Shown: positions 724 to 38,399 of the stretch, piece after piece
Numbering within the stretch: the first letter of the stretch is position 1
Layout of the letters: each line of letters begins with the position of its first letter
Assembly (NCBI GenBank): GCA_046757845.1
Contig: JBHHYZ010000003.1
Coordinates: 26,628-90,627 of the forward strand
Origin: Gemmatimonadota bacterium
GTDB taxonomy: Bacteria; Gemmatimonadota; Gemmatimonadetes; Palauibacterales; Palauibacteraceae
DNA length: 64,000 nt
Direction of reading: 5' to 3'
The notes under the pieces: generated by a model
Database searches by the model: none
The model's input: the letters and a program-made list of their open reading frames with translations, nothing else
Told to the model about the DNA's origin: nothing
Program-made: the position numbers and the translations under genes

Positions 724-1617
724 CTAGCGCCCGGCCCCCGCCGGCTGAGGATCCGGCGATCTCCGCCCGGCGGCCGCCGAACCGTGGTCCACGACCAACG
801 GCGTACCGAGGGGAACATCGGCCCCTGCCGCCATATCCGCGCTGTACTGGAACGCGACCTCCTGCGTCTCCTGAGGTCCCAGGGTGACGTTCTGCGTCAG
901 CGTCCCGTACTTCTCGTGCCACGCCTCGATCACATAGTCGCCGGGTGGGAGGTTGGGGATCTCGAAGCTGCCGTCCGCTCCCGAGACCGCGAAGTACGGA
1001 TGGTCCACCACCCCGATGTAGGCGTGCATCCAACCGTGGACGTCACACTTGACCGGAATCATCACCTCGGGCGTTCGGAACTGCCGCCTCGACTCCATCC
1101 CCGCCTGGGGCTGACTGATGTTGAACCCACGGTTGGCCGTGGGCTGGGTGTTGATGTTGTGCAGCACCGGATCGTCGTTCTTGATCAGGAGAGTCTGCCC
1201 TGTCTGAACACCCAGCACATGCGGATGATAGCGGCACCCAGCCTGGTCGATCTCCACGCTCTCCTCCGGGGGTGGGAAGCTTCCCGAAAGACCCTCCTTC
1301 ACGTACACGAACACGTTGGCCAGCTTGCCCTCGTTCACCACCACCGTCTGAGTGGTGGGTCCCTGGTCACCGTACTTCGCGGCGCACGCCGGCTCTTCCG
1401 ACATGTCGATCGGCTCGGCCGGAGGCGGCGTGCCATCGAACGAGATCGTGCCACGGATCGCCGCCGCTTCCTCCGGGCTCACCGCGGGCGCTGCCGCTTC
1501 GGTCGCCTCCCCGGCCTGTCCACCGGACGAGGAACCCGCTCCTTCTCCACCGCCACCGCAGCCGAACAGGACGACCGCCGGAAACAGTGCCACAGACTTC
1601 AAGATCAGAGTTCGCAT
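724..1617 (-). CDS. secreted lipoprotein-like protein with a cupredoxin-like (type-1 Cu) motif and a carboxypeptidase-regulatory-like domain
   Basis: Internal ATG at 1615-1617 gives 'MRTLILKSVALFPAVVLFGCGG', a signal peptide with lipobox. 'KCDVHGWMHAYIGVV' fits a cupredoxin C-x2-H-x2-M loop. The C-terminal 'GADGSFEIPNLPPGDYVIEAWHEKYG' is CarbopepD_reg-like. The ORF-track N-terminal extension from 2070 is spurious. Confidence 0.5.
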   Translation of the reverse strand: MRTLILKSVALFPAVVLFGCGGGGEGAGSSSGGQAGEATEAAAPAVSPEEAAAIRGTISFDGTPPPAEPIDMSEEPACAAKYGDQGPTTQTVVVNEGKLANVFVYVKEGLSGSFPPPEESVEIDQAGCRYHPHVLGVQTGQTLLIKNDDPVLHNINTQPTANRGFNISQPQAGMESRRQFRTPEVMIPVKCDVHGWMHAYIGVVDHPYFAVSGADGSFEIPNLPPGDYVIEAWHEKYGTLTQNVTLGPQETQEVAFQYSADMAAGADVPLGTPLVVDHGSAAAGRRSPDPQPAGAGR

Positions 1618-1682: not shown

Positions 1683-3233
1683 TCATGGCGCCGGGAAGCG
1701 GCGTTGCGCCCGGCGAACGAGACCGATGCTCAGTCCGCCCGTGAGCAACACCGCGAGCAACGGTACCAGAAGCACCCTTGCCGAGCCCGGCTTCTCGAGC
1801 AGCACGTAATACCAGGTTCCGATCGAGCCTCGAGTCCCGGTTTCTCCGCTGGAGCCATCCCAGGCGAAGAAGGCTACGGGAATCGGCGTTCCCTGCTCGA
1901 ATCCGAGTTCGCTTTCGTCGGCCGCGTCCAGGGCTCTGCGCAGCACCAGGCTCCAGCGTCCCTTCTCGTACGCCGACTTCGCCGTCAGGCCTCCACCGAC
2001 CAGTGGCTCGAAGTTCGCCAGGCCCCTGGCCCAGGCCTCCGAGCCCCCCTCCAGGCTGTTCCAACGCCACAGGTAGGCCGGGTTCCGCTCGTCTCCCATG
2101 AGGAAATATGGACGCTCGGAGCCCTCCGGAATCTCGGGTGGAAACTGGACGGCGAAGGCGTCCGGAATTGGACGTGTGGGAATTCCCTCGCTATCGGCGA
2201 ACAGGCTCGCGGCGATCTTGGCCTGCCATTCGTCCCAGTTCGGATCCGGACTCCGGGAAGGATCGTCCCAAACGAGCCGAAGCGCCAGGTCTGTGCCGTC
2301 ATGCAGACCCTGCACCCACACGCCGTCCACCGTCGGAGAGAACTGGCGCGGCCTCCGAATGACCTGGCCGACGAGCGGGAAGTAGAACGCTTCGGCCTGC
2401 TCCCAGGCCGGATCTTCCGGGGAATCGGGCACCTTTCCTTCCGTCCGCCGCACTCGGACCACCTCGCGCACGTGCGGGGCCTCCCGCGGACCCAGGTTGG
2501 CTACGTAATGCGCCAGCTGCCAGATCTCCTCATCCGTGACGACCCCCCCCTCCAGAACATCGATGGCCGCCGGCATCGGCGTGCCGTCAAGGCCCGTCAG
2601 GATCCGGGTGTGGATGGCCTCGACGCTGCTTCCACCATTGAACAACCATGACTCGGTGAGGTCCGCCGCCCGGATCGGCAGCTTCCGCCAATCCTCCAGC
2701 GACGGTGCCGAGGGGCCATCTCCGCGGCCGGCCTCTCCGTGACACTTGGCACACTCGAGCTTGCCGAACACGGTTCGCCCTGATTCGATCGCGTCCTCCC
2801 CGCCGCCAGGGTCCGAAGTGAATTCCATCGCTTCCGGCACCTCGTCCTCGAAGAACGGGGAGAACGCCTTGATGTAGGAGAGCACGTCGGCCCGCTGCGT
2901 CGACGACAGGTTGGGCCAGGACGGCATGGTGGTGCCGGGGATGCCATGCTCGAGGACGCGTTCCAGGTCCGCGTCCGTGGGGAGTTCGCCGCTCCCGGTC
3001 GTCCGGACTTGATAGCGCGCGGCGGTGAAATCGCGGGGACGAGGAAGCATGCGTTCCGCCGCCGGCCCATCTCCCTTCCCATCCTCCCCGTGGCAATCCA
3101 CACACCACCGCTCGTACACCAGGCGACCCCGCTCGGAACTCTGAGCGACGACCCGACCCGAAGGCCAGCCCAGAGCTGCGAGCAGCGCGATGCCCACGCC
3201 CAGCTTGACCCGAACCCTTCCCCCATCCCTCAT
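1683..3233 (-). CDS. diheme c-type cytochrome fused to an EB_dh/DOMON-like heme-binding domain
   Basis: The internal start 'MRDGGRVRVKLGVGIALLAALGW' (signal peptide) lies at 3231-3233 and overlaps the upstream stop (ATGA). Two CXXCH motifs: CVDCHG and CAKCHG. The C-terminal half ('PYFLMGDERNPAYLWRWNS...AFFAWDGSSGETGTRGSIGTWYYV') resembles the ethylbenzene-dehydrogenase gamma / NxrC-type heme domain. A C-terminal TM helix follows. Confidence 0.6.
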   Translation of the reverse strand: MRDGGRVRVKLGVGIALLAALGWPSGRVVAQSSERGRLVYERWCVDCHGEDGKGDGPAAERMLPRPRDFTAARYQVRTTGSGELPTDADLERVLEHGIPGTTMPSWPNLSSTQRADVLSYIKAFSPFFEDEVPEAMEFTSDPGGGEDAIESGRTVFGKLECAKCHGEAGRGDGPSAPSLEDWRKLPIRAADLTESWLFNGGSSVEAIHTRILTGLDGTPMPAAIDVLEGGVVTDEEIWQLAHYVANLGPREAPHVREVVRVRRTEGKVPDSPEDPAWEQAEAFYFPLVGQVIRRPRQFSPTVDGVWVQGLHDGTDLALRLVWDDPSRSPDPNWDEWQAKIAASLFADSEGIPTRPIPDAFAVQFPPEIPEGSERPYFLMGDERNPAYLWRWNSLEGGSEAWARGLANFEPLVGGGLTAKSAYEKGRWSLVLRRALDAADESELGFEQGTPIPVAFFAWDGSSGETGTRGSIGTWYYVLLEKPGSARVLLVPLLAVLLTGGLSIGLVRRAQRRFPAP

Positions 3234-4057
3234 CACTCCCCTCCCGCCGCCTGTTCCCAGGTTCGGGGCGTGCTTCCGGTCTGCCGGTACAGGAAGATGA
3301 TCACGGACCATATGTCGTCTTCGTCCAGCACATCTTCCCATACGGGCATGGCCGAGTTCCAGGGCGTTCCCTCCACGGGTAGCCCCGGTCCTCCCTTCGC
3401 GATCCTCCAGAACACGTAGCTCTCCTGGAGCTGTGAGATCGTGCCCCCGCTCGAGAAATCGGCCGGTATGGGTGAGAACGCCGCGGCGTAGTGCCCGGCC
3501 CCATCCAGCCGATCGCCGTGGCAGGGCACGCAGTTCTCCGCGTAGATGCGGGCGCCGTGGCGGTAGGACTCCTCCAGGTCGCCCAAGCTTCGCAGGGGGT
3601 TCTCCAGGCCGGCCAGGCGCATCGTCCGCCCCCGGAACGTGATCTGGGTTGGAGGAGCCGGATGGATGGATCGCAGGCTGGCCGGCGCTCCGAAGCTGGG
3701 CTTCACGCTCTCGTAGGCCAGGTAACCAACCAGGAGTGGGAGACAGACGAGCAGGATGCCCCGAAGCCACCGTCGCTCGGATTCCACCATGGTACGGTGG
3801 ATCGGCTGCTTGAACTCCGTCCAGCGGTTCTCATCCGCGCTCACGTAGAGCAGCACGCCGGCCACGGCGATCAGCATGTACTGCAAAAGCACGGAGTGTG
3901 GAACCGGAGCGCTGTGCACGCCCGCGGCGGGCAGGAGGGATCCGATTCCGTATTTGAATACCACGTAGGATCCGATCAGGAGCAGCACGGCTTGCCAGAA
4001 CGGATGCCGCAGGTATCCTCTCATCTCCCGTCCTCGCGTCGATCCGGCCTCCTCCAC
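3233..4057 (-). CDS. membrane-anchored monoheme c-type cytochrome
   Basis: N-terminal TM helices, then one CXXCH (CVPCHGD) in a C-terminal soluble domain. The start is either 4057 or the ATG at 4024. Confidence 0.6.
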   Translation of the reverse strand: MEEAGSTRGREMRGYLRHPFWQAVLLLIGSYVVFKYGIGSLLPAAGVHSAPVPHSVLLQYMLIAVAGVLLYVSADENRWTEFKQPIHRTMVESERRWLRGILLVCLPLLVGYLAYESVKPSFGAPASLRSIHPAPPTQITFRGRTMRLAGLENPLRSLGDLEESYRHGARIYAENCVPCHGDRLDGAGHYAAAFSPIPADFSSGGTISQLQESYVFWRIAKGGPGLPVEGTPWNSAMPVWEDVLDEDDIWSVIIFLYRQTGSTPRTWEQAAGGE

Positions 4058-4061
4058 GAGA

Positions 4062-4865
4062 TCATTTCGCGCCCCGCAGAAAATCCACCAGGGCCTCGAG
4101 CTGCGCGGCGGTCAGCCGATCTCCGAAGTTGGGCGGCATGGTTCCGGCGAACGCCTCGAAACCCTGAGCGGTGTCGGCGTTGGGCCGTAGGATGCCCCGT
4201 CGCAGATACTCCCGATCCTTGCCGGCAAGGCTGCTGAACGGCGGGCCCACCTTGCCGCCTTCGCCCTCGAGCTCGTGGCAGGCCAGACATCCGAGCGTAT
4301 GGATCAGCTCGCGTGGGCTCAGCGAAGCCTCGAGGATGGTCCCCCCGCCGGCGGCGGTCCCCCCGCTTCCGTCCACACCTGCGGCCTTGGCCGGAATGTC
4401 GTCGGCGGTCACCGTCACCTCCCCACCCTGGCTCTCCAGAAAAGCGACGAGAGCCCAGATCTGGGACTCCGACAGCGTACGACCCATGGGCGGCATGATG
4501 GGCTGGAAGCCCTCCACGACATACGCCGCCGGGTCGACGAGGGATTCGTAGAGATACTCCTTGCACGACATCCCCGGCTTGCGGGACGCGCACCGGGTTC
4601 CGACCTCGCGCAGCAGATCCGGCGCGCGCGTTCCCAGGCCATGGCAGGCCGTACAGCCGCCCGCGCCCCGGAACAGCTCGCCGCCGATGCGCACCAGCTC
4701 CTCTGGGGTCACATCACCACTGATGCTCACAGCCTCCGGGACCTCCGACTGAACCTGCGGGATCATGTTGGCGACCGCCGTATACACGGCCAGTGTCCCG
4801 GCCACGGTGAGGCCGATGTTCAGGTTCGTGCGCCACATGGAGGTACGACCGAATTCGCGGTTCAT
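4062..4865 (-). CDS. membrane-anchored diheme c-type cytochrome
   Basis: N-terminal TM anchor and two CXXCH motifs (CTACHG, CLACHE). The start overlaps the upstream stop (ATGA at 4862-4865). Confidence 0.65.
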   Translation of the reverse strand: MNREFGRTSMWRTNLNIGLTVAGTLAVYTAVANMIPQVQSEVPEAVSISGDVTPEELVRIGGELFRGAGGCTACHGLGTRAPDLLREVGTRCASRKPGMSCKEYLYESLVDPAAYVVEGFQPIMPPMGRTLSESQIWALVAFLESQGGEVTVTADDIPAKAAGVDGSGGTAAGGGTILEASLSPRELIHTLGCLACHELEGEGGKVGPPFSSLAGKDREYLRRGILRPNADTAQGFEAFAGTMPPNFGDRLTAAQLEALVDFLRGAK

Positions 4866-6691
4866 TCCGGCCTCCCCCCGGCCGGAGCTGTATCTCCCGA
4901 CGATCGGCCGACCGATCTCGCGGCGCTGCTCATCAGAGCGGGCTTCTCCACTAGGCCGCCCAGCCAGAAGATGAGCCCCACCAATCCGAAGAAGATGAGA
5001 ACGCAGATGCTGATCATGGTGGCGGCGGGTCCGAGCGCGGGGGTGGCGGCCTGGGGACTCGTATCGCGCATCACCTCGTACACATGCCAGTGTTGCCGGA
5101 TGCCGCTACGGGCGAAGCCCATGAGTCCCATGAGCCAGGTGAAGGTGACCGCCAGAACGAGCAGGGCGTACTGCGAGCGCGCCGGCATCTGGCCCCAGCG
5201 GATCGCACCACGCGACGTGGCTCCCCGCATCATCGCGATATCGATGGCCACCACGAACACGATGGTGGCGAGGACGGCCAGCACCTGGTAGACGCTGAAG
5301 CCGATGCGGATGATGGCGGTCACGAAGTAGCCGTACACTCCGTAGAAAACCACCACGAGGGCCGCGACTCCGAACGCCAGCCCCTGCAGCCAGGTGCCGG
5401 CTCGCGCCCACGCCACGACCGGCTCCTTGTTGGCCCGGCGATACAGAAGAAACGAGAGGAAGGTCGTGAGGATCATGAGATTCACGGCCGTGTTCTTGGC
5501 GCTCATCACGCCGAGCACGCCGAGAAACGGGTGGTGAGTACCGCCCATCGCGGCGATCTCATCTCGATTCGCGATCATCGTATGCGGGGTCGACCACACC
5601 AGGACGCCCAGCACCAGCACCAGAAGCATCCACTTGATGTGGGGCCGGAAGCGCTCGGCCCCCGGAATCCTTCCCATCCCGATCCACAGGTAGTAGTTGC
5701 CCGCCAGGAAGAGCACTCCGATCAGGAACGCCTGGATGATCCACAACCAGCTCATGAACCCGCCCATCATCGTGATGCCCAGCTGCTGGTTGTACTCGTA
5801 GATCTCGCGGCCGAGATAGTAGCCCGCGAAGGGGAGGACGATGAGGGCTCCGATCGCGATGAGGTTGCCGATGTAACCCATCCAGTCGTAGTGGGCCCGT
5901 TCCTCCTCGGTCCGCGCGGCCAGGAATCGGTAGGCGGCATAGGCTCCGACGATCGCTCCGCCGAACACCACGTTGGCGATGAGGCGGTGGATGTTGATCG
6001 GCATCCACGTCGCATTGGCCAACGCGCTCCACAGCTTCACCTGTTGTGGCGCCGTGTCCGCGGTCACCTCCGCCGGCGGGCTCATCATGTACGTGAGCCA
6101 ACCGTTGGCGATGAACATCACCGTCGTGCCCCATACATTGAGGAGGATTCCGAGACCCAGGTGGAATCTCTTGCCGGCGCCCCGGCTCCAGCGGTCCCAA
6201 CCGTAGTAGTAGAGGTACAGGGTGAAGGATTCCACGAAGAACAGGCCCACATACAGCCACATGGACGGGCCGAAGATCGCCGTCAGATAGACCCAGAATT
6301 TCGGGTAGAGGGTGGACAGGAAGAATACGAGCACCGCCCCCCAGATGGCAGTGGCGCTGTACGCGATCAACAGCAGGCGGGTGAACTCCTTGGCCAGCTT
6401 GTCGTAACGCTCTTCCCGGGTGAATATTCCGATCCCCTCCACCACCACGGCGAACATCGGCACACCCAGCACGAACGCCGCGAACATCAGATGGAGCTGG
6501 GCCGCGATCCACACTGCGCCCCGCGCATCCAGACCGAACAGGTGGAACTCCCCGTAAGCGGGAGGGCCGTCCTGCGCCAGCAGCGGGCCCGCCACCAGGA
6601 GCAGCGACGCGGCGGCCAGGACCCAGACGAGAGCGGAGCAGCGAGGTCGGCTCTTCTCTCCGGAAGAACGCTTCATCCCTGGCGCCATCAA
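4862..6691 (-). CDS. cytochrome bd ubiquinol oxidase subunit I-like (CydA family) integral membrane protein, orphan (no CydB)
   Basis: 609 aa and polytopic. The N-terminus 'AAQLHLMFAAFVLGVPMFAVVVE' matches the CydA helix-1 signature with the heme-ligand His. 'ANGWLTYMMSPP' is a GW..E-like motif. It is longer than canonical CydA, with extra C-terminal TM helices. No CydB gene is adjacent. The start overlaps the rSAM stop (ATGA). Confidence 0.65.
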   Translation of the reverse strand: MMAPGMKRSSGEKSRPRCSALVWVLAAASLLLVAGPLLAQDGPPAYGEFHLFGLDARGAVWIAAQLHLMFAAFVLGVPMFAVVVEGIGIFTREERYDKLAKEFTRLLLIAYSATAIWGAVLVFFLSTLYPKFWVYLTAIFGPSMWLYVGLFFVESFTLYLYYYGWDRWSRGAGKRFHLGLGILLNVWGTTVMFIANGWLTYMMSPPAEVTADTAPQQVKLWSALANATWMPINIHRLIANVVFGGAIVGAYAAYRFLAARTEEERAHYDWMGYIGNLIAIGALIVLPFAGYYLGREIYEYNQQLGITMMGGFMSWLWIIQAFLIGVLFLAGNYYLWIGMGRIPGAERFRPHIKWMLLVLVLGVLVWSTPHTMIANRDEIAAMGGTHHPFLGVLGVMSAKNTAVNLMILTTFLSFLLYRRANKEPVVAWARAGTWLQGLAFGVAALVVVFYGVYGYFVTAIIRIGFSVYQVLAVLATIVFVVAIDIAMMRGATSRGAIRWGQMPARSQYALLVLAVTFTWLMGLMGFARSGIRQHWHVYEVMRDTSPQAATPALGPAATMISICVLIFFGLVGLIFWLGGLVEKPALMSSAARSVGRSSGDTAPAGGRPE

Positions 6692-8046
6692 TGCCTCCGT
6701 GCGAAGAACGGCAGGCGACGGGAGAAATCTACCGGCATCTCGGCACGCACCTCCTGCATCACTTCAAGCGTGATCCGCTCGTAGCCCCGGTCCCGGGCGA
6801 AGGACTCGACTCGGCCGGCCACCACGCCGCGGACGAAAGAAGGAATCCGCCTCAGCTTCCGCTCCGCCTCCGGAGTCCACTCCAGGGCGCGCGTGACCTC
6901 GGCCCCGTAGGTGGTCGCCCGGGCGCGCGGGACGGGCTCGGCCCAGCCGGCCGGCTCGTAGGCACAGGACTCATCGGGTCCCAGGAAATCGCCATCGGTG
7001 GCATAGGCTCGGGCTCGACAACCGCCGCACACCTCACGGTATTCGCAACGGCCGCACTTGCCGCCGGGCCGACCCTCGCGCAGCAGGCGGAACAGCCTGG
7101 ACGAGCGCCATATCGTGCCGAAGTCGTCCTGCCGGAGGTCGCCCGCCACGGCTGGCATGTAGGGGCATGGCGTCACCGCCCCCTCGGGGGTGATCCGACA
7201 GTACTGGACTCCACACGGGCAGCGGGTCGCGTAATGCAGGAGCGGCGATTCGGGGTCTCGCTCATACACGTGCCGCATCAACTGAGGCTGGCACTTGGAG
7301 CGGATCATGAGCCGGCCACGGTATTCACGCTGCAACCGAACCAGCTCCAGCAGCACTTCCTCGTTCTCCGTCGGTGACAGTCCGGCCATGCCGCTGCCGC
7401 GGCCCGTCTCCACCAGGAAGTAGAAGTTGACGCACACCGCACCCATCCGATCCGCCCAGGACACCAGTCCCTCCACCTCGCGGTGGTTTCCCCTGGTGAG
7501 GGTCATCTGGACCACGAAGTCCAGACCCTGCCGGCGGAGGCGGCCCACGGCGTCGAGCGTGTCCTGGAGCGCCCCCCGGCCATGTCGGAAGCGGTCATGG
7601 TAGCGCGGATTCAACGAATCGACGCTGAGGGCGACTCCCTGCACGCCCGCTCCCATCAGGGATCCGATCCGCTCCTCCGTCAACAGTGTCCCGTTCGTCC
7701 CGACCACCACGGTGGCGCCCCCGCTCGAAGCGTGGCCCGAAATCGTTTCGAGATCCTCACGTAGCAGGGGCTCACCACCGCTGAGGATGAGCATCGGCGC
7801 GGGGTTGACCGACAACACCTGATCCACGATGCGAAGACACGCGTCCGTGCCCAGCTCTTCCTCCGCTCCATGCCATGAACCGGCCGAGATGTAACAGTGG
7901 GCGCAGGCCAGATTGCAGCGCCGCGTGAGATTCCAGGCCACGACGTGAGGCCGTGCGACAGTCGCTTCATCCCGCCCCCGGGAGAGTGGGCCGAGGGCCG
8001 GCTTGAGCCACCGAGTGGCTCGAGCCTCACTCCGACTCCCGCCCAT
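6688..8046 (-). CDS. radical SAM/SPASM-domain protein (NirJ/AhbC/AhbD-like) with a C-terminal PCP_red-like domain
   Basis: 'VVAWNLTRRCNLACAHCY' is the CxxxCxxC radical SAM motif of the SPASM/NirJ group. The C-terminal Cys-rich region 'CPCGVQYCRITPEGAVTPCPY...CGRCEYREVCGGCRARA' is the SPASM domain. The tail 'TPEAERKLRRIPSFVRGVVAGRVESFARDRGYERITLEVM' resembles the BchB/ChlB C-terminal PCP_red domain. Confidence 0.7.
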   Translation of the reverse strand: MGGSRSEARATRWLKPALGPLSRGRDEATVARPHVVAWNLTRRCNLACAHCYISAGSWHGAEEELGTDACLRIVDQVLSVNPAPMLILSGGEPLLREDLETISGHASSGGATVVVGTNGTLLTEERIGSLMGAGVQGVALSVDSLNPRYHDRFRHGRGALQDTLDAVGRLRRQGLDFVVQMTLTRGNHREVEGLVSWADRMGAVCVNFYFLVETGRGSGMAGLSPTENEEVLLELVRLQREYRGRLMIRSKCQPQLMRHVYERDPESPLLHYATRCPCGVQYCRITPEGAVTPCPYMPAVAGDLRQDDFGTIWRSSRLFRLLREGRPGGKCGRCEYREVCGGCRARAYATDGDFLGPDESCAYEPAGWAEPVPRARATTYGAEVTRALEWTPEAERKLRRIPSFVRGVVAGRVESFARDRGYERITLEVMQEVRAEMPVDFSRRLPFFARRH

Positions 8047-10105
8047 CCCCGTCCCTCTCCACCAACCTCTCCACCGCCGCTCTCGCGTCCGCGGGACTCA
8101 CCATCGCGAAATCCACCGGGCACGCGGCCGCCTGCGCCTCGATGTCCCGAATCGGACACCGGCTCACCCCGGAGGCCTTCGCCTCCTCGATGAACCGCTT
8201 CATCTCAGCGCTGAGTCCGTCTCCGCCGGTCACGTCGGCTCGGGCCTGTTTTGCCTTCAGCTCGTTGAACATCACCAGCATCGTATCCATGTCGAACTCG
8301 TCCGCCTCGATCATGGCCTCCTTGTTCTCGTCCATGACGCGCGTCGTCACGCGCCACAGGCCATGTGCGCGGGCGAACCGCTCCACCGTGTTGCGGGCCA
8401 GGGGGCGGGCGATCAGCGGCACCTGATTGAGTCGCGCGAAGGCTTCGTGCGTCCACACGATCGGATCTCCGGCAGCTCTCTGGCGGGAAGTCAGATGGCC
8501 GCTGTGAGGACACCGTTCCTGGACGGGAGGCGGAGACTCCGGACACTCCGCGTCGCGAGTCCGAACCACCGTGCGCTTCATCGCCTCTTCAGCCTTCAGC
8601 TCGGCGAGCGCGAACTCTTCCGCATCCCCGATCCCCATGATCAGCTGCATGTGGGTGGGAAGGAGCTTACGAATCGCCTCATCGAGCCTCTGGTTGGTGA
8701 CGGTGGGCAGGGTGGGAATGCCGAGCGCGGATTCCCGTCCGCCGCCGTCGGGCGAGCCATCCTCCCCGTCGTCAAAGGCGGCCGCGTAGCGGCTCCCGGG
8801 CCCGTGGAACTCGAGGACGTACTCCTCCACCGCCCTGCGGGCGATGCCCAGGGCGAAAGGTGGTACGCGGAGAATCCTCACCTCCGCCTCCGGAGCCCAT
8901 TCCAGGCCCTGTCGCCCATCCTCCTCGATCCAGGGGATCTCCTCCGGGCGCACATCCGTCGTCCCCGCGATCAGGATGTTGGTCGGGGCCAGGCGGGCAA
9001 GGTTCTCCGCCTGGCTGCCGAGCTCGGTTCCCTCGATCCGGTGTGCGCCATGCCGGGCGAGGATCAGGAGGGTGGGATCGATCTCTTCAGCCCACTGCAG
9101 GACCACCTGAAACGGCTTGCCTATCAGGATCTGCGTGTGGATCTCGACCTCGGGATACTCCCCGCCCATCACCTCCGCGCGCTTGATGTTGGCCTGGCAG
9201 AGCTTCAACAACCCCTTGTCGATGATGTTGTTGTGCAGCGCCTCCTGCTCCTCGAACTTGAACACCTTGGAGGCCTGGGCAGAAAGAACATCTTTGATGT
9301 TGTGGAACACGACGTGGTGGTACTCCACGTCGAAGGCGCTGCACACGTAGAGGCTGGCGGAGAACTCGCGCGCCAGCTCCAGCGCCTTCCGCAGACCCCT
9401 GTAAGCGTACGCCGACCCGTCCACGCAGACCATGAACCGTCCGCCCTCGAGCGGCCGCCCATCCCGGACGAGCAACACGTCCTTGCGGATGCAGCGAAGC
9501 GCTCGGCCGGCCACGCCACCCAGCTGGCTGTAGGGCTGCCGACCCAGGCCGTGCGCACCCAAGATCACGAGATCGTAGTCGCGCCCCGAGGTGCCGGCCA
9601 ACTTCTGTTCGGCCGTCTCCTCCTCGGCGATGATGCGGCCGTCTTCCCCCAGCCTGACATCGGAGCGGACCTGCTCGCCGCCGTCGTAATGGTGGGCAAT
9701 ATTGGGATCGAACCCGATCAGGCTGGGAAGCCGCCCGCTTCCGGAGTTGGACTCGCGGACGATCTCTTCGTAGTTGATTCCCTCCAGCAGTTGCCGCGTC
9801 AGCGGCACTCCGGCCTGCCCGCAACGCTGGGCCACCTGATCCAGAAAACTGTCCGAGATGAGCTGCAGGCCTTTCTCGATGAGCTTGTCGTGGATCTTCC
9901 GCTGGCGGCGGATCTCTTGCGGCTCCTGGAACTGGGCGGGGAGCCCGATCTCCAGCTGGCGGAATCGTACGTCGTGCAGGCGAGCGGCGTAGACGTGCGT
10001 AGCCGTGATACGGCCCTGCGACCTCTCGCAGAGCTCGATAGCCCTGTCGACCGCCCAATCCGAGTGCTCGGAGTTGTCGACAGGGACGAGAAGCTCTCGA
10101 TACAT
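8027..10105 (-). CDS. tandem universal-stress-protein (UspA) domain protein with two PCP_red-like domains
   Basis: Two UspA-like modules ('LLVPVDNSEHSDWAVDRAIEL', 'FMVCVDGSAYAYRGLRKALELA'). Two PCP_red-like repeats ('WAPEAEVRILRVPPFALGIARRAVEEYVLEFHG', 'WTHEAFARLNQVPLIARPLARNTVERFARAHG'). An acidic C-terminal tail. Confidence 0.55.
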   Translation of the reverse strand: MYRELLVPVDNSEHSDWAVDRAIELCERSQGRITATHVYAARLHDVRFRQLEIGLPAQFQEPQEIRRQRKIHDKLIEKGLQLISDSFLDQVAQRCGQAGVPLTRQLLEGINYEEIVRESNSGSGRLPSLIGFDPNIAHHYDGGEQVRSDVRLGEDGRIIAEEETAEQKLAGTSGRDYDLVILGAHGLGRQPYSQLGGVAGRALRCIRKDVLLVRDGRPLEGGRFMVCVDGSAYAYRGLRKALELAREFSASLYVCSAFDVEYHHVVFHNIKDVLSAQASKVFKFEEQEALHNNIIDKGLLKLCQANIKRAEVMGGEYPEVEIHTQILIGKPFQVVLQWAEEIDPTLLILARHGAHRIEGTELGSQAENLARLAPTNILIAGTTDVRPEEIPWIEEDGRQGLEWAPEAEVRILRVPPFALGIARRAVEEYVLEFHGPGSRYAAAFDDGEDGSPDGGGRESALGIPTLPTVTNQRLDEAIRKLLPTHMQLIMGIGDAEEFALAELKAEEAMKRTVVRTRDAECPESPPPVQERCPHSGHLTSRQRAAGDPIVWTHEAFARLNQVPLIARPLARNTVERFARAHGLWRVTTRVMDENKEAMIEADEFDMDTMLVMFNELKAKQARADVTGGDGLSAEMKRFIEEAKASGVSRCPIRDIEAQAAACPVDFAMVSPADARAAVERLVERDGDGRESE

Positions 10106-10321
10106 CCCTGCTCCGGGCTAAGGGGTATCAGCCGTGCCGGTCCCTCTATCTCAATCGAGCCTGACGGCCCGCCAAGTCTGAGCCTGCCACCCTGGTATCG
10201 ATGCGCTTCCGGTCTCGGACGCCGCGCGGACCGGGAGAGTCCGCTCGGGATCGCGGCGTGCCGAGTAAATCCGGCCCCTCATGGTGCCCCGAAACGGCTT
10301 CCCGAGGCCGGCGCGGACAAA

Positions 10322-10350
10322 CTTATAGCCGCGAGCACTCCCGAAGTCAA
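10322..10350 (-). promoter_or_regulatory. candidate sigma70-type promoter with a ~210-nt leader before the Usp-PCP_red gene
   Basis: The minus strand reads TTGACT-17 nt-TATAAG (rc of plus 10322-10350). It lies in the 260-nt gap between the ABC-2 permease and the Usp gene. Confidence 0.3.
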
Positions 10351-10366
10351 ACCGGCCGCGATCCCG

Positions 10367-11050
10367 TCAGCGACCCGTCAATCTGCGGGCGAGAAGCGGC
10401 GCCAGGAGAAGCGCGATGCCCGTCAAAACGAGCCCTCCAGCCAGGCCGGGAAGCCAGGCTCGGCTCGCTCCTCGGAACGATTCGCCCCATCCACCGGCCA
10501 CCTGGCCCATGGCCTCGTGAAGCGGCCCGAACGGGCTCACCGCCTTGGCCGCCCATGCCCAGGTATGCCGCTCCGGGACCCGGAATACGCCAGCCATATG
10601 GAGAGCGAAAAGCGCGGTGGCGGCACACGCCAGTGCGCCCTCCGCCAAGGAGCGGACCACGGCCGCTACCAGCGCGCCCAGGACGTTGGCCGAGAGGAGC
10701 GCGAGGCTCATGGCGGCCAGCGCCGCCACGGCGCCCGCGGGTCGCAAACCCTCAGCGAGGAAGAGCAGCAGCATGGCCGGCAGCAATTGCAGGGTATCCA
10801 AACATGAAGCCGCCAGGAGGCGCTCCCCCAGCCAGCGCCGCTCTCCGTATCCCGTCAGGAGGATCTTCTCCGTCCAGCCCGAATCCGCATCCCGGACCAG
10901 CGGGACGCAGCTGCCGAACGCGCCGAAGAAAACGATGAACAGGGTGAACACCACCGCCCGGTGCGCTTCCGGGGCCGAGCTCAGCGCAACCGGCCCCAGC
11001 AAGCCCAGCGGCACGCCGACGTTCCACAACAACAGGCGACGGCGCCGCAT
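10367..11050 (-). CDS. ABC-2 type transporter permease
   Basis: Multi-TM hydrophobic protein immediately downstream of the ABC ATPase. The likely start is the internal 'MRRRRLLLWNVG' at 11050; the ORF-track extension to 11422 overlaps the ATPase. Confidence 0.5.
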   Translation of the reverse strand: MRRRRLLLWNVGVPLGLLGPVALSSAPEAHRAVVFTLFIVFFGAFGSCVPLVRDADSGWTEKILLTGYGERRWLGERLLAASCLDTLQLLPAMLLLFLAEGLRPAGAVAALAAMSLALLSANVLGALVAAVVRSLAEGALACAATALFALHMAGVFRVPERHTWAWAAKAVSPFGPLHEAMGQVAGGWGESFRGASRAWLPGLAGGLVLTGIALLLAPLLARRLTGR

Positions 11051-11085
11051 CGCGATGCGCCATTCGAGAGCCCACACATCACGCT

Positions 11086-12012
11086 TCACGGAGAGTCCTG
11101 GACTCCGAGCGAGGCTCCCGTCATCGAGAGGAAGACGTCGTCCAGATCGGGCTCGCGAATCCGCACGCTGTTGAGCTCCACACCGCCGCGCACCAGCCAC
11201 CCACAGAACTCCGGGAGCTGTCCCGATCCGCCTGCCGAAGCGAAGCGGGCGATGCCGTCGTCGCTCCCCAGAGCCACCACGCCCTCCGGCGGACCCCCGG
11301 GGAGACGGATGCCTTCCCACTCCACTTCGAACACCGTCTGACGTTCCAGTCCACCCACCAGCTGGGCCGGCGCACCCTCGGCCACCACTCTTCCCCCATA
11401 CAACAGAATCACCCGGTCGCACCCCGCCGCGAACGAGGCATCATGCAGCGCCACGACCGCTCCCCCTCCCCGCGCCGAGTGCTCCTCGAGGGCGTGGGCG
11501 AGAACCGCTCGAGCCTCCACATCGAGACCGATCAGCGGTTCGTCCAGGAGAAGCAACTCCGCACCCGAGGCGAACGCCTCGGCCAGCGCCAGGCGCCGTC
11601 TCTGGCCGAGCGAGTAGGTGGACGCGCGCCGCCCCGCCCGATCCGCCAAGCCGAACCGCGTGAGCCACCGCGAGATCGCCCGGGCGTCACGGGTCACGCC
11701 CCGCAGCCTGGTCAGATGCGCCAGGTTCTCCCCACCGGTGAGGTCGGGATGGATCGGAAGATAGTCGAACACGACGGCCAGTCGGCGGCGAAGCTCCCTC
11801 AGAGGGAGCGAACCGGACTCCGCCAGCAGACGCAGGGTGCCGTACGCCGGCACTGTCGCGGTCGCCAGCATCCGGAGAAGCGTGGTCTTGCCGGAGCCGT
11901 TCGGGCCTACGAGAGCCACGACCTCGCCCCTGCGGACTGAGACATCCACGCCGCGCAGCGCCCACGTCCCGTCGCGATACCGATAGCTCAGGTCATGCCC
12001 GGTGGCCAGCAC
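11086..12012 (-). CDS. ABC transporter ATP-binding protein
   Basis: Walker A 'GPNGSGKTT', signature 'LGQRRRL' and Walker B 'LLLLDEP'. Confidence 0.8.
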   Translation of the reverse strand: MLATGHDLSYRYRDGTWALRGVDVSVRRGEVVALVGPNGSGKTTLLRMLATATVPAYGTLRLLAESGSLPLRELRRRLAVVFDYLPIHPDLTGGENLAHLTRLRGVTRDARAISRWLTRFGLADRAGRRASTYSLGQRRRLALAEAFASGAELLLLDEPLIGLDVEARAVLAHALEEHSARGGGAVVALHDASFAAGCDRVILLYGGRVVAEGAPAQLVGGLERQTVFEVEWEGIRLPGGPPEGVVALGSDDGIARFASAGGSGQLPEFCGWLVRGGVELNSVRIREPDLDDVFLSMTGASLGVQDSP

Positions 12013-12021
12013 CCCCCCACC

Positions 12022-12282
12022 TCACGGAACCAGAAGCACGCCGGCTCCATCGGACACCGTGATCGCGTCCACCGGACACGCCGCGCAGGCCTCCAGGAGC
12101 CGGGCTCGCGGCACTTCGCCCGAACCGCGGAACACGGCGATTCCTTCCTCATCCAGATCGAATGCCTCCGGCGCCACGGTACAGCAGTCGGCGAATCCCA
12201 CGCACAGATCCCGGTCGATGCGCAGGGTGAGGCCGTGAACTCGACACAGGCCTGCTCCAGGTGGGGCGTGCACCGGCTTCAC
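12022..12282 (-). CDS. small [Fe-S] ferredoxin
   Basis: 86 aa; 'CVGFADCCTVAP...CPVDAI' is a single-cluster ferredoxin pattern. Confidence 0.55.
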   Translation of the reverse strand: MKPVHAPPGAGLCRVHGLTLRIDRDLCVGFADCCTVAPEAFDLDEEGIAVFRGSGEVPRARLLEACAACPVDAITVSDGAGVLLVP

Positions 12283-12764
12283 ATCCCTTCCAGCCCCAGG
12301 TCACTCCGGGCCCGGTCCATCACCGAAGGCGTGATCTCGCCGATCCCGTGCTGCCTAGCGTAATCCGCATAGATGCGCTTCACCATGCCCCGGACGAAAC
12401 GAGGGACCTGCTCGAGCCGCTCGACGGCCTCGAAGCTCCAGCGCACCGGTCCGTCCGCCGCGTCCCCGGAACAGGCGGGTGGTGCCGCCGGCGGGCTGTC
12501 CCGCTCCATCGAATCGGCGAACGCCTCCTCCTTCCCCTCGGCCAGCGAACGCCGCACCAGCTCCAGGGGCTGAGAAGGAACGGTGCGACCCCCCACCACC
12601 ACCCCCAGCGAACTCACCAGCTGCGTCTCCATCGGGTTGGCCAGCATGGCGGTCATCCTCTCACACCTGGGGCAGCGAAACACGGCCGCGAAGGTTCCGT
12701 CACCCGGGAGCTCCCGCTCCTCGAACACCATCTGCTCATCGCATTCAACGCACAGGAACTTCAT
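12279..12764 (-). CDS. zinc-ribbon + PCP_red-like domain protein
   Basis: N-terminal 'CVECDEQ...CPRCER' is a CxxC...CxxC zinc ribbon. C-terminal 'WSFEAVERLEQVPRFVRGMVKRIYADYARQHGIGEITPSVMD' is a PCP_red-like domain. Confidence 0.5.
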   Translation of the reverse strand: MKFLCVECDEQMVFEERELPGDGTFAAVFRCPRCERMTAMLANPMETQLVSSLGVVVGGRTVPSQPLELVRRSLAEGKEEAFADSMERDSPPAAPPACSGDAADGPVRWSFEAVERLEQVPRFVRGMVKRIYADYARQHGIGEITPSVMDRARSDLGLEGM

Positions 12765-12782
12765 GCCGTCCCACTCACCCCT

Positions 12783-13680
12783 TCAATCTCTCGAACCCCG
12801 GTCGTGAAGCCGTTCCACGATCCGTCGGGCGATCTCCCTCAGGGCTCGTCCCGCCTCGGTCCGGGCCAGCAGCTCGCCCATTCGGCCGGCCTCGGCCAGC
12901 CGTCCCGCCACGCAATCGAACGGTATCCGGCCCAGCAGAGGGACCCGAAAACGGGAGGCCAGAGTGCGGCCGGCCTCACCCGGGAACAGGGGGCCCACCG
13001 TTTCACAGGTCGGGCAGTGGTAGCCCGACATGTTCTCGACGATGCCCAGCAACTCGATCCCCCTTCGACGGCAGAGTGTAAGCGAGCGTTCAACGGACTC
13101 GCGCGCCGCCTCCGACGGAGCCGTCACGGCCACCACTCCGGCGAGGGCCGGCACGAGCTCGTGCAGCTCGAGCAGCCGCTGCGTGACCGGAGGCAGATCC
13201 ACCAACAGGAAATCCAGGGACCCCCACTCCACATCGGAGAGGAACTCCCTCAGCGCGCCCCTTTCCTGCGCACCTCTCCACACGAAGCTGTCCGACCCCG
13301 GCTCGCGCCATTCCACGGGCTGGGCGTCCGAGAGCAGCAGGGCCATCGACATCAGAACCACGCCATCGGGCGAGATCGCGGGTCGCACGGACCGGTCGAC
13401 CGCCTCCAGCGGAGTCGAGCGGACCCCTAGCATGCGCGCCGCGGTAGGACCGTTGAGATCGGCATCCAGGAGCCCGATCGAGCCATGATCGCGACGCAGA
13501 GCCGTAGCCAGGACCGCACTCACCAGGCTCTTGCCGACTCCGCCCTTGCCGCTCATCACGGCGATCACCGAGTCGACCTCGCGGATCCGCTGGGCGACCC
13601 TGGCCGCCTGTTCCTGGACCTGTGCTCCCAGACCCGACGCGTCCGGTCCGGTGAGTTGATGATACGTCCGAATTACCACG
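12783..13680 (-). CDS. Mrp/NBP35 (ApbC) family iron-sulfur cluster carrier ATPase
   Basis: 'IAVMSGKGGVGKS' P-loop and 'CPTCETVGPLF' (CxxC) characteristic of ApbC. The likely GTG/TTG start is near 13680; the ORF-track N-terminus from 13829 looks non-coding. Confidence 0.75.
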
Positions 13681-13897
13681 CTCCGCGCACGCTCCTTCGG
13701 CGTGTGTCCGCCTGCCGGGAGAGAGTTCGCCAAGCACCCGCTCGACGACCGTACAACGTGCCCGCCGACCCCTGAACGCGTCAAGCGGACGTTGCCCGGT
13801 ACCCACGGGCTTCCGCGTCCGGGCCCCATCGCCTAGGTTTCATACAGTGCAGATCGGCCGCTCGGCGGCCGGAAGCTCCATCATCCCTGGGGTCTGT

Positions 13898-14104
13898 ATG
13901 TCGATCATCGGGTTTCACCGTTTGCTGATCACGATCGCCATTCTGTTCTGCGCCGGCTTTGCAGTCCGGGAAAGTGTCCGCTGGGCCGCCGGAGCCGGGG
14001 GCCTGGCACTGCTCCTGGCCGGCGGCTTCGCGCTGGCAGCGGCTGGCCTGGGTTATTACCTGGCGCACCTGAGTCGATTCCTGCAGGGAAAGCGGTCCAC
14101 CTGA
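13898..14104 (+). CDS. small two-TM membrane protein (hypothetical)
   Basis: 'MSIIGFHRLLITIAILFCAGF...LALLLAGGFALAAAGLGYYLA' gives two hydrophobic helices. It is divergent from the big operon. Confidence 0.3.
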   Translation: MSIIGFHRLLITIAILFCAGFAVRESVRWAAGAGGLALLLAGGFALAAAGLGYYLAHLSRFLQGKRST

Positions 14105-14109: not shown

Positions 14110-14745
14110 ATGCCGCGCTGGCTCCTCGCCGGCGGTCTGCTCTTCGCACTGGTACTGGGAAGCCTCCTGGTCTCTTCCCTGTCGCGTCCGACGCCTTCCA
14201 CCTTCCTACCTACGCCGCCCGCTCCGTCGGCGGCGGGGGATTCGCTGATCTGGGACCGCTTGTACACGATCGACGCCCGGGATGCGCAGCGATGGGTGTT
14301 CTTCGATTTCTCCCGCTCGTCGGTCGTCGTCGACCCCGGACCGCTGCAATGGGATCTGGCGGTACGCCGGTTTCACCTCATCACGAACGGAGGACCGTCC
14401 TTCCCTGGCGGCGGCGGGGTGATCGAGATGCCCGGCGTGGATCTCGATTCACTTACCGAGGCGCCGCGCGGAGAATACGTGGAGACGGCAGGCTCGTTCG
14501 ACTCGAACGCGGCGAATCCGGTCTTGGACCGCTGGTATCGATACGGCTACGTGAGCCATCTGCTGGAGCCTCGCCCCCGAACCTATGTTTTCCGCACCGC
14601 GGATGGCCGGTACGCGAAGCTGAAGATTCTGAGCTACTATTGTCCCGGTGCGGTGCCGGGCTGCCTCACGTTTCGCTATACCTACCAGGGCGCGGGAGGG
14701 CGGAGGCTCACGCGAGCGGCCCCACCTCCAGAATCTTCCGGATGA
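14110..14745 (+). CDS. secreted hypothetical protein
   Basis: Signal peptide 'MPRWLLAGGLLFALVLGSLLVSS'. No recognised catalytic motif. Confidence 0.4.
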   Translation: MPRWLLAGGLLFALVLGSLLVSSLSRPTPSTFLPTPPAPSAAGDSLIWDRLYTIDARDAQRWVFFDFSRSSVVVDPGPLQWDLAVRRFHLITNGGPSFPGGGGVIEMPGVDLDSLTEAPRGEYVETAGSFDSNAANPVLDRWYRYGYVSHLLEPRPRTYVFRTADGRYAKLKILSYYCPGAVPGCLTFRYTYQGAGGRRLTRAAPPPESSG

Positions 14746-15214
14746 GGGCGCTGGTGGAACAGCCTCCTTGCAGCGGAAGCATGACGACTTCGCCACCCCA
14801 CCTCTCCACGAGATCGGCTCCCACGACCTCCTCGGCGCGATAGTCCGCTCCCTTGACCAGTACATCCGGACGGATGGCCTCGATCAGGGCCAACGGGGTC
14901 TCGGCGTCGAAGAGAACGACGGCGTCCACGTACCGCAGGCTCGCCAGGAGCGCTGCCCGGCCCGTGGCGGGAACCAACGGCCGTCCGGGCCCCTTGATCG
15001 CCCGCACGGAGTCATCCGCGTTGAGGCCGACCACCAGGACATCTCCGAGGCCTCGGGCCCGGCACAGCAGGGACACGTGCCCCGGGTGCAGGAGATCGAA
15101 ACAGCCGTTGGTGAACACGAGCCGGTAGGACCGGGGGGGGGCGAATCTGGTCCGGGCTTCCACCGCATCGAAGATCGGCGCGCCGCCGGCCGCTGCCGGA
15201 CCCGGTTCGCTCCT
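14708..15214 (-). CDS. D-glycero-beta-D-manno-heptose 1-phosphate adenylyltransferase (HldE/RfaE domain II, stand-alone)
   Basis: 'LVFTNGCFDLLHPGHVSLL' is the cytidylyltransferase HxGH motif. 169 aa starting at the ATG at 15212-15214. The long upstream extension in the ORF track overlaps hemC and is spurious. Confidence 0.75.
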   Translation of the reverse strand, partial: RSEPGPAAAGGAPIFDAVEARTRFAPPRSYRLVFTNGCFDLLHPGHVSLLCRARGLGDVLVVGLNADDSVRAIKGPGRPLVPATGRAALLASLRYVDAVVLFDAETPLALIEAIRPDVLVKGADYRAEEVVGADLVERWGGEVVMLPLQGGCSTSALIRKILEVGPLA

Positions 15215-18070: not shown

Positions 18071-18116
18071 CAGGCAACCGAGACGGCTCGCCCCGGCCGC
18101 GGCGTCCCGTGGTCTC

Positions 18117-19703: not shown

Positions 19704-19846
19704 GGTCGGGATCCGTTGTGCGTGGTTCCGGTCGATCTCCGCCTCTGCCGCTGCGCGGATCGGAGCCCCAGGCTAGGGAGGGGCGAAGAGGCTGTCAATC
19801 GAACCGGGAGCGTTGACGCGTTCGATCGGCCGGGTATCTTCGGCGA

Positions 19847-21406: not shown

Positions 21407-21439
21407 CGGGCCGTTCTTCCGGGTCTCCGATGGGCGAGC

Positions 21440-26505: not shown

Positions 26506-26525
26506 TGGGAAAGAAATGAAATGAA

Positions 26526-38349: not shown

Positions 38350-38399
38350 TCATCGGGCCTCTAACGAATCCCGCCCACACCCTTCCTTCGAAGAGCTCT

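Follow-up and report, generated by a model that had tools for sequence, protein, structure and literature searches.

The radical-SAM enzyme AhbD, which belongs to the siroheme-dependent pathway, has been characterised from Methanosarcina barkeri and Desulfovibrio. The coproheme decarboxylase ChdC is O2/H2O2-dependent and cannot work at low O2, and a role as terminal oxidases in nitrite and manganese oxidisers has been suggested for the OR-N2 bd-like oxidases. Here we describe a gene cluster in which an AhbD-like enzyme, two further proteins that share its C-terminal PCP_red domain (Pfam PF08369), an Mrp-type iron-sulphur (Fe-S) carrier and a ferredoxin are encoded directly upstream of an OR-N2-type oxidase operon. 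The cluster occupies positions 6688-13829 of a 64,000-nucleotide (nt) stretch of DNA, which we call the window, from a Gemmatimonadota bacterium of the family Palauibacteraceae (GenBank assembly GCA_046757845.1, contig JBHHYZ010000003.1, positions 26,628 to 90,627). Our reading of it, which we offer tentatively from its domains, motifs and gene order, is that the module would make haem b without oxygen through a synthase of the AhbD type, helped by dedicated Fe-S, redox and adaptor proteins, and that it would be expressed together with the OR-N2 oxidase, which is rich in haem.

Lone AhbD-like enzymes are known from bacteria that use the coproporphyrin-dependent pathway, where they may stand in for ChdC under anaerobic conditions (PMC13564367; PMC10114771). 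According to the supplement of Murali, Gennis and Hemp (bioRxiv 10.1101/2021.01.16.426971), a typical OR-N2 cydA operon holds an EbdC homologue besides several cytochromes c. PCP_red is found at the C-terminus of the DPOR subunit BchB/ChlB, and as stand-alone proteins whose structures (2KRU and 2L09) come from structural genomics; no function is assigned to these stand-alone proteins in the literature that we searched. The idea of a lone AhbD-like gene is therefore already accepted, and what is new in the window is the fusion of such an enzyme to PCP_red, the multi-protein module, and the link to OR-N2.

Three clustered proteins share a PCP_red domain

We assigned domains with the Pfam gathering cutoffs and subfamilies with the curated cutoffs of NCBIfam. 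The PCP_red cutoff (32.5 bits) is exceeded in three proteins of the cluster (Table 1), as a first-pass annotation made from the letters of the window had predicted: the radical-SAM/SPASM enzyme (domain at amino acids 390-434), a zinc-ribbon protein (amino acids 109-153), and a tandem-Usp protein with copies at amino acids 401-429 and 548-598, separated by a linker that contains Cys and His. That annotation had counted four copies in three adjacent proteins. We find three full copies and one interrupted one: in the Usp protein, about 40 inserted amino acids break up the first copy, which scores 22.5 bits, compared with 98.8 for the second, against a custom hidden Markov model (HMM) of PCP_red. 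The three genes are clustered, but they are not all adjacent to one another: the order of transcription is Mrp, zinc-ribbon-PCP_red, ferredoxin, ABC ATPase, permease, Usp-PCP_red, radical-SAM-PCP_red, CydA-like, cytochromes and a CarboxypepD_reg lipoprotein. All genes from position 13829 to 724 are on the minus strand (the window is GC-rich, about 66%), in line with the single strand noted for the cluster in the first pass. Their junctions overlap or are shorter than 20 nt; the one exception is a gap of 261 nt that separates the permease gene from the Usp gene.

A profile built from the window's three full copies has at least 1630 matches (E ≤ 0.001) among 1.84 billion cluster representatives at 50% identity, many of them with 2-6 tandem PCP_red copies. 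Because the domain is rare database-wide yet present in 3 of 7 neighbouring genes of the window, and because the arrangement recurs in dozens of independent genomes, chance clustering can be excluded. Among the best 150 of the at least 1630 matching representatives, 34 have Usp domains, 19 have a rubredoxin-like ribbon (RUBY_RBDX), six have Radical_SAM (five of them with SPASM), one has a haem-oxygenase-like domain, and none is a BchB. The window unites side by side the three dominant architectures of this PCP_red subtype.

These fusions bear on the possibility that the Usp, zinc-ribbon and Mrp proteins are a hypoxia or redox stress set that is merely co-located with the radical-SAM enzyme and the oxidase. 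In its favour, Usp is a family of general stress proteins, gene order varies between phyla, and in a Nitrospinota locus (L044; loci are referred to by such numbers) an Rrf2 regulator is divergent from the Usp and radical-SAM-PCP_red genes. Against this, the enzyme, the Usp protein and the zinc-ribbon protein all carry one and the same rare domain, the group is kept together in Poribacteria in loci without a nearby oxidase, and the main domains to which PCP_red is fused in the sample of 150 described above are Usp, ribbon and Radical_SAM. We give this explanation very little credence.

The PCP_red segments align with the extreme C-terminus of ChlB/BchB (by phmmer for the zinc-ribbon protein), and they also align with the stand-alone PCP_red structures, which were determined by nuclear magnetic resonance. 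The AlphaFold2 model of the zinc-ribbon protein has the three-helix PCP_red fold, and in Foldseek searches it matches 2KRU with a root-mean-square deviation (rmsd) of 1.1 Å over 51 columns, chain D of 2YNM (2YNM_D) with 1.4 Å, and also 2L09. The C-terminus of BchB/ChlB and the stand-alone proteins are of the same Pfam family and three-helix fold as the window's domains (rmsd 1.1-1.4 Å), and they share with the window copies the motif W..EA...L..VP.FVRG...R....YA...G...IT. Unlike in BchB, however, the domain is fused in the window to Usp, zinc-ribbon and radical-SAM modules, and it belongs to a family in which tandem copies are frequent. We ruled out identity with DPOR subunit B (BchB/ChlB): the proteins have no Oxidored_nitro domains and no BchN/BchL partners, and a Pfam scan of the cluster genes found no nitrogenase-like genes. 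Matches to the NCBIfam model DPOR_BchB are confined to its last ~60 profile positions and score 35-42 bits, compared with cutoffs of 490-509.

The first-pass annotation called a docking role of PCP_red in BchB established. The DPOR structure literature that we searched does not state the role of this C-terminal domain, which makes docking a reasonable inference only. One idea is that PCP_red might dock the NifH-like L-protein in DPOR and, by analogy, the Mrp ATPase here.

A short PVDF motif comes after PCP_red in two of the proteins. One is the radical-SAM protein (window positions 6688-6760, MPVDFSRRLPFF), in which D440, F441 and S442 are invariant; the other is the Usp protein, whose tail (window positions 8027-8500) has CPVDF following a conserved C-x11-C. 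Usp proteins also have, between their two PCP_red copies, a segment that can be aligned with the part of the zinc-ribbon-PCP_red protein after its ribbon. This alignment suggests that a fusion with a unit resembling the zinc-ribbon-PCP_red protein gave rise to the Usp protein.

The radical-SAM enzyme is AhbD-like

The radical-SAM protein, which is 100% identical to a protein of a Gemmatimonadota metagenome-assembled genome, was annotated in the first pass as a radical-SAM/SPASM enzyme and linked there to the tetrapyrrole-modifying enzymes of the NirJ/AhbC/AhbD type, and the profile searches bear this out. Its best NCBIfam models are NirJ2 (276 bits) and AhbD (TIGR04545; 259.2 bits), matched over their full length (profile positions 1-339 of 339 for AhbD), while the AhbC, NirJ and NirJ1 models give about 150-162 bits and the peptide maturases less. 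It shares 39% identity (55% positives) over 343 amino acids with an AhbD homologue of Methanosarcina sp. The cluster-binding motif of radical-SAM enzymes, CX3CX2C, is present as C44/C48/C51. The auxiliary motif CX2CX5CX2CX17C, which distinguishes AhbD from NirJ with its CX2CX5CX20-21C (PMC10114771), is matched exactly (C331-x2-C334-x5-C340-x2-C343-x17-C361). Across 57 homologues the Cys residues of both motifs never vary, nor do five others. We ruled out NirJ itself by score (162 bits against a cutoff of 515 for TIGR04051), by the AhbD-type spacing of the motif, and by gene context: there are no nirS/nirF/nirD-type genes among the cluster genes scanned with Pfam.

In a tree built by neighbour joining from the catalytic regions of 48 loci and rooted at the midpoint, all the PCP_red-bearing enzymes form one clade nested among plain AhbD-like sequences; the AhbC-like proteins encoded beside archaeal and deltaproteobacterial AhbD lie outside. 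This distance method is crude, but it separates the groups clearly. On sequence grounds the enzyme is AhbD-like and lies in the AhbD/NirJ tetrapyrrole clade. Like AhbD it combines radical-SAM and SPASM domains with both cysteine motifs, and AhbD too occurs without AhbA/B/C. It differs from AhbD in carrying a C-terminal PCP_red after a linker of ~25 amino acids, and in its company: its gene sits with those for Mrp, Usp-PCP_red and zinc-ribbon-PCP_red beside an oxidase operon, not with ahb genes. None of the PCP_red-bearing loci has an AhbC-like or AhbA/B-like gene within 10 kb, and the plain AhbD loci (L057-L081) have AhbC-like neighbours.

The AlphaFold2 model of the enzyme has a radical-SAM/SPASM fold (predicted TM score 0.85), and the linker and PCP_red are modelled with a per-residue confidence (pLDDT) of 85-96 (91-96 in PCP_red), which we read as PCP_red packing against the radical-SAM core in cis. 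The closest solved folds in Foldseek are PqqE, SkfB, SuiB and anSME (E-values 1e-16 to 1e-9). On these matches the enzyme could be a SPASM protein or peptide maturase that acts on an oxidase subunit or on the PCP_red proteins, with PCP_red for substrate recognition, and FGE-sulfatase-like proteins are encoded right after the enzyme in a Vicinamibacteraceae locus (L042, 11602-12255) and a Nitrospinota locus (L044, 11752-13029). The fold matches are generic to radical-SAM/SPASM proteins, however, because no AhbD structure has been solved (PMC10114771) and they can reflect only the structures that have been. The enzyme's similarity to tetrapyrrole enzymes in NCBIfam is far stronger (E = 1e-82) than that to anSME and the peptide maturases (1e-30 to 1e-36), and we rejected the latter identity on this basis. 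No small precursor-peptide gene is conserved, and a three-helix C-terminal PCP_red is unlike known recognition elements. Maturase activity is accordingly among the least probable explanations that we considered.

The enzyme could also be mainly a haem chaperone or insertase resembling HemW: it would bind finished haem and deliver it to the membrane oxidase, and PCP_red would be its targeting element. HemW is a radical-SAM-fold haem chaperone that serves the membrane respiratory protein NarI (PMC10114771), so there is a precedent for a protein of this family dedicated to haem provision for a respiratory enzyme. The translational coupling to the cydA-like gene fits this, and the multi-copy PCP_red proteins could act as carriers. 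HemW belongs to the CgdH-like branch, however, and is not catalytic, whereas the window enzyme is AhbD-like and has all the catalytic cluster ligands; AhbD and CgdH share no substantial similarity (PMC10114771). Strict conservation of the radical-SAM motif and both auxiliary sites argues for catalysis, and the only conserved residue in PCP_red that might ligate haem as a His, Cys or Met is a single Met. We regard a chaperone as improbable.

The module is associated with OR-N2-type oxidases across phyla

The stop codon of the radical-SAM-PCP_red gene overlaps the start of a CydA-like gene (6691 versus 6688), whose Cyt_bd_oxida_I match is limited to the N-terminal core of the protein (amino acids 57-302). 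From this core match and the content of the operon we class the operon as OR-N2-type cytochrome bd-like. As in the published OR-N2 operons, among them those of the bd-like oxidases of Nitrospira, it encodes a CydA-like subunit, several cytochromes c and an EbdC-like subunit. There are five CxxCH motifs in the translations of its cytochromes, which with the EbdC-like haem b and the haems b of the CydA-like subunit would bring the complex to at least eight haem sites. The CarboxypepD_reg gene keeps its position as last gene in Gemmatimonadota loci.

The published description of OR-N2 differs in lacking the radical-SAM, Usp, Mrp and PCP_red genes that lie upstream in the window: neither the main text nor the supplements of the paper that defined OR-N mention radical-SAM or Usp genes (10.1101/2021.01.16.426971). 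We found no earlier report of the PCP_red/radical-SAM module or of its OR-N2 link in the literature that we searched, in keeping with the first-pass view that the system was undescribed, and these surroundings of the OR-N2 operon appear to be a new observation.

To map the module we anchored one scan on the enzyme, using one genome per GTDB species (79 loci, annotated by phmmer with the window proteins and by the PCP_red HMM), and another on the oxidase, using metagenomes and a Thermodesulfobacteriota CydA-like sequence as the seed (80 loci). A search with the window's own CydA-like protein returned close Gemmatimonadota relatives only. Among the Gemmatimonadota species genomes, the CydA-like gene directly follows the enzyme gene in 22 of 22 evaluable loci, the Usp-PCP_red gene precedes the enzyme gene in 24 of 24, and the Mrp and zinc-ribbon-PCP_red pair is present in 19 of 19. 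The metagenomes gave the same picture, with the radical-SAM-PCP_red gene immediately upstream of Gemmatimonadota-type oxidases in all evaluable loci (56/56). The linkage to CydA-like genes that the first-pass annotation proposed as a check is therefore kept in related genomes, and it extends beyond the phylum. A second oxidase type in the metagenomes has no radical-SAM gene upstream (0/7), and the Usp-PCP_red gene comes directly after its operon in 4 of 4 evaluable loci.

That second arrangement matches the Acidobacteriota loci L042 (Vicinamibacteraceae) and L043 (Ca. Multivorans), in which EbdC-like and Usp-PCP_red genes are followed ~9 kb on by Mrp, zinc-ribbon-PCP_red and radical-SAM-PCP_red. 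In Thermodesulfobacteriota L047 the order is cytochrome c, COX1-like, DUF364, tandem Usp (without PCP_red), radical-SAM-PCP_red, CydA-like and two cytochromes c, and its close relative L082 again has Usp, radical-SAM-PCP_red and CydA-like. The SAR324 locus L068 has two tandem OR-N2 operons, then radical-SAM-PCP_red followed by two more PCP_red proteins, the last of which is a Usp protein that combines five copies of the domain with rubredoxin-like ribbons. Outside Gemmatimonadota, a Usp homologue is encoded beside either the radical-SAM gene or the oxidase operon in Thermodesulfobacteriota, in Nitrospinota, in SAR324 and in Acidobacteriota. Poribacteria have radical-SAM-PCP_red together with a Usp protein with three PCP_red copies (11 of 15 loci), the Mrp and zinc-ribbon-PCP_red pair (11/14), and usually a further PCP_red protein. 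Mrp directly followed by zinc-ribbon-PCP_red is found in three phyla, namely Gemmatimonadota, Poribacteria and Acidobacteriota (Vicinamibacteraceae and Ca. Multivorans), and the archaeal, Syntrophales and other loci have plain AhbD without PCP_red. OR-N is recorded in Poribacteria, Gemmatimonadota, Acidobacteriota, Nitrospirota, Nitrospinota and Desulfobacterota (phylum table of Murali et al., 10.1101/2021.01.16.426971), so that, at the level of phyla, every enzyme-bearing phylum also holds OR-N, either by this table or, for SAR324, by direct observation. The PCP_red multi-protein module is associated with OR-N2 oxidases across at least five phyla.

Further respiratory genes lie beside the oxidase operon in L002 and L047. 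In L002, a 3-Mb Gemmatimonadota contig, an aa3-type haem-copper operon (COX2, COX1, COX3, COX4; 17804-21510) comes directly after the OR-N2 operon. In L047 (11228-20477), which is part of a metagenome-assembled genome, genes for a NarJ-like chaperone, a molybdopterin oxidoreductase of 1168 amino acids, a Fer4_11 subunit and an EB_dh subunit come after the OR-N2 genes, so that one string of genes holds both an NXR/Nar-like enzyme and the bd-like oxidase.

Partner proteins

The Mrp gene has a maximal open reading frame of 348 codons, but its real start is probably internal, giving a protein of about 295 amino acids. The Walker A motif GKGGVGKS and the cluster-bridging CPTC are present, and with its NUBPL/ParA match these features place it by sequence among the Mrp/NBP35/ApbC carriers; the best NCBIfam model, MrpORP (214.6 bits), is below its cutoff of 450, and ApbC (128 bits) is below its cutoff of 348. 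The first-pass identification of this carrier and of the ferredoxin holds (Table 1). MrpORP, from the orange-protein cluster of Desulfovibrio, is likewise a dedicated paralogue inside a specialised cluster with P-loop, CxxC and NUBPL match. In contrast to the ApbC and MrpORP systems, Mrp of the window type is invariably paired with a zinc-ribbon-PCP_red gene, and it falls below the equivalog cutoffs. The ferredoxin is present in nearly all Gemmatimonadota loci, either before Mrp or after zinc-ribbon-PCP_red.

In the AlphaFold2 model, the zinc-ribbon protein consists of a three-stranded beta ribbon (amino acids 1-42), a disordered stretch (53-101) and three helices (107-157; pLDDT 93-98), and the four ribbon Cys are conserved in its orthologues. 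This predicted layout of ribbon, disordered tether and three helices fits an adaptor. Two Usp domains (PF00582) were confirmed in the Usp protein.

The first-pass annotation also made the ABC-2 transporter pair a member of the system, and here the comparison went the other way: the pair is present in only 9 of the 21 Gemmatimonadota-type loci with enough upstream sequence, and nowhere else. The stop of the ATPase gene and the start of the permease gene overlap in GTGA, and the permease orthologue in L002 is recorded as ABC2_membrane. In NCBIfam the ATPase stays below cutoff with both the DrrA-subfamily model (154 bits) and the CcmA model (120.4 bits; cutoff 131.6). We rejected a CcmAB-like core haem exporter, since the pair is found in a minority of loci and scores below the CcmA cutoff.

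A proposed oxygen-independent haem b synthase

In the haem b synthase that we propose, the radical-SAM-PCP_red enzyme would use S-adenosylmethionine and three [4Fe-4S] clusters to convert the ring A and B propionates of Fe-coproporphyrin III (coproheme) to vinyls without O2, yielding haem b. The Mrp P-loop carrier would load the Fe-S clusters of the enzyme. The ferredoxin and the zinc-ribbon-PCP_red protein would be redox or adaptor partners, which may reduce the radical-SAM cluster and take the electron left after decarboxylation, and the tandem-Usp-PCP_red protein may be a nucleotide-binding scaffold or regulator. The three-helix PCP_red domain on all three proteins would be their shared docking module. 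Co-transcription, and the stop/start overlap onto the cydA-like gene, could time haem supply to the synthesis of the complex, presumably under low O2. The ABC-2 pair would be a lineage-specific addition.

Several observations weigh against this proposal. The enzyme reaches no equivalog cutoff: its AhbD score of 259.2 bits is about half the curated cutoff of 500. The PCP_red-bearing enzymes form a clade of their own, and for these two reasons the enzyme may act on, or make, another tetrapyrrole. The roles proposed for the Usp and zinc-ribbon proteins are read from the domains that they contain. In Poribacteria none of 14 loci has a CydA-like gene within 10 kb of the module, and three Acidobacteriota/Thermoanaerobaculia loci consist of radical-SAM-PCP_red alone, with no oxidase gene within the same distance; supply to an adjacent oxidase is therefore not the only possible role of the module. 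The first-pass annotation saw the module as dedicated to the downstream haem proteins, and this survives in the conserved linkage but not in these loci.

The same annotation suggested that the product might be a modified haem. On this alternative the enzyme makes a modified haem, or processes a haem precursor in another way, specifically for OR-N2 oxidases, and the PCP_red proteins hand the cofactor over. It would account for the stop/start overlap with the cydA-like gene, the perfect synteny in Gemmatimonadota and the recurrence next to OR-N2 operons in other phyla; the separate clade, with scores below every curated equivalog cutoff, is compatible with it. A relative, NirJ, removes propionates to build haem d1 (PMC10114771). 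Yet the enzyme has the exact AhbD motif, not that of NirJ, its highest similarity is to haem b synthases, no second tailoring enzyme is conserved in the cluster, and the lone Acidobacteriota/Thermoanaerobaculia enzymes and the Poribacteria modules described above have no oxidase nearby. We found no positive evidence for a modified haem; the AhbD-specific motif and the closeness to haem b synthases favour ordinary haem b, and we consider the alternative unlikely. A broader possibility, which we think rather improbable, is that PCP_red is a general adaptor that builds a dedicated machine for haem synthesis and insertion at OR-N2 oxidases, with either a haem variant or channelled haem as the product. 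The components of this machine would be the radical-SAM enzyme, a redox partner of the rubredoxin-like kind, an Fe-S loader and a Usp scaffold gated by nucleotides. Overall, the first-pass interpretation is partly supported.

Features of the cluster and its surroundings

The coordinates of the cluster, of the oxidase operon and of the divergent HmuY-like gene are given in Table 1. Scanning for promoters and terminators gave nothing above the expectation from shuffled sequence, and Rfam identified no RNA elements in the cluster.

Table 1. Genes of the PCP_red cluster, the OR-N2-type operon and the divergent HmuY-like gene, in window coordinates.
Feature	Position	Strand	Evidence
Mrp/NBP35/ApbC-type P-loop Fe-S carrier	12783..13829	-	Pfam ParA/NUBPL 208.7 bits
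Zinc-ribbon (CxxC...CxxC), flexible linker and C-terminal PCP_red, 161 aa	12279..12764	-	PCP_red 47.8 bits
Small single-cluster ferredoxin	12022..12282	-	Pfam Fer4_13 41.0, Fer4_15 40.4 bits
ABC transporter ATPase, lineage-specific accessory	11086..12012	-	Pfam ABC_tran 100.3 bits
Probable ABC-2 permease, lineage-specific accessory	about 10367..11089	-	ABC2_membrane_3 26.0 (cutoff 31.6), ABC2_membrane 23.2 (cutoff 26.9)
Tandem-Usp protein with two PCP_red, 692 aa	8027..10105	-	Usp 106.8 bits (2 stretches), PCP_red 54.5 bits (2 stretches)
AhbD-like radical-SAM/SPASM enzyme with C-terminal PCP_red, 452 aa	6688..8046	-	Radical_SAM 89.8, SPASM 33.5, PCP_red 59.6 bits
CydA-like subunit of OR-N2-type bd-like oxidase (outside the module proper)	4862..6691	-	Cyt_bd_oxida_I 85.3 bits
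Dihaem cytochrome c	4062..4865	-	Pfam Cytochrom_C/Cytochrome_CBB3
Membrane-anchored cytochrome c	3233..4057	-	Pfam Cytochrom_C/Cytochrome_CBB3
Dihaem cytochrome c fused to EbdC-like haem b domain	1683..3233	-	EB_dh 55.3 bits; NCBIfam DMSO_red_II_gam 87.8 bits
Lipoprotein-like CarboxypepD_reg/fn3_3 protein, last gene of the operon	724..1617	-	CarboxypepD_reg 35.7 bits
HmuY-like (haem-binding family) protein, divergent from Mrp gene	14110..14745	+	Pfam HmuY 66.3 bits

Upstream of the HmuY-like gene is a gene for a small membrane protein (13847-14104, plus strand), and the pair is kept beside the module in L002, L004, L011, L017, L020 and L046, making the HmuY-like protein a possible associate of the module. 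Just upstream of the module are genes for porphobilinogen deaminase (hemC; 15214-16170, minus strand) and a Na+/H+ exchanger (16179-17726, minus strand); a Na+/H+ exchanger also follows the lone radical-SAM-PCP_red gene in Acidobacteriota L001 (11400-13316). The HmuY-like gene and hemC add a haem theme to the neighbourhood, although a weak one.

In other phyla, genes related to copper or metals are repeatedly found next to the module, and the FGE-sulfatase-like genes mentioned above are among them. In Poribacteria these are SCO1/SenC and a CopD-like membrane protein whose gene abuts the radical-SAM gene (L025, 2072-2704 and 9569-10027); we rejected the CopD-like protein as a haem enzyme of the HemJ type, as NCBIfam gave only a weak CopD match. 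A giant multicopper-oxidase-like protein is encoded near the module in Nitrospiraceae L032 (1-4095), and a DUF364/DUF4213 'heavy-metal chelation' gene precedes Usp in L047 (8077-8901).

Elsewhere in the window, a cobalamin riboswitch (38398-38547, minus strand; 54.5 bits) is directly upstream of a gene for a BtuF-like binding protein (37326-38324, minus strand), which is followed by an ABC transporter (35523-37208, minus strand) and a TonB-dependent receptor (33235-35598, minus strand), so that the whole looks like a corrinoid uptake operon. The organism uses selenocysteine, since the window has genes for tRNA-Sec (21907-22002, minus strand) and the elongation factor SelB (29368-31284, minus strand). 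There is also a tmRNA gene (26523-26886, minus strand) with the tag peptide ANDNLALAA.

Implications

If it is a haem b synthase as we propose, the radical-SAM-PCP_red enzyme would be a candidate oxygen-independent coproheme decarboxylase in Gemmatimonadota, Acidobacteriota, Poribacteria, Nitrospirota/Nitrospinota, Thermodesulfobacteriota and SAR324. These are large phyla of mostly uncultured diderms, for which reviews describe the anaerobic step only as one that 'may be AhbD-like'. The module would tie cofactor supply to the OR-N2 bd-like oxidases, and it would give a functional context to the PCP_red domain outside DPOR. Should PCP_red prove to be the general adaptor considered above, the haem product would define the chemistry of OR-N2, and the same logic would explain the C-terminus of BchB in chlorophyll synthesis.

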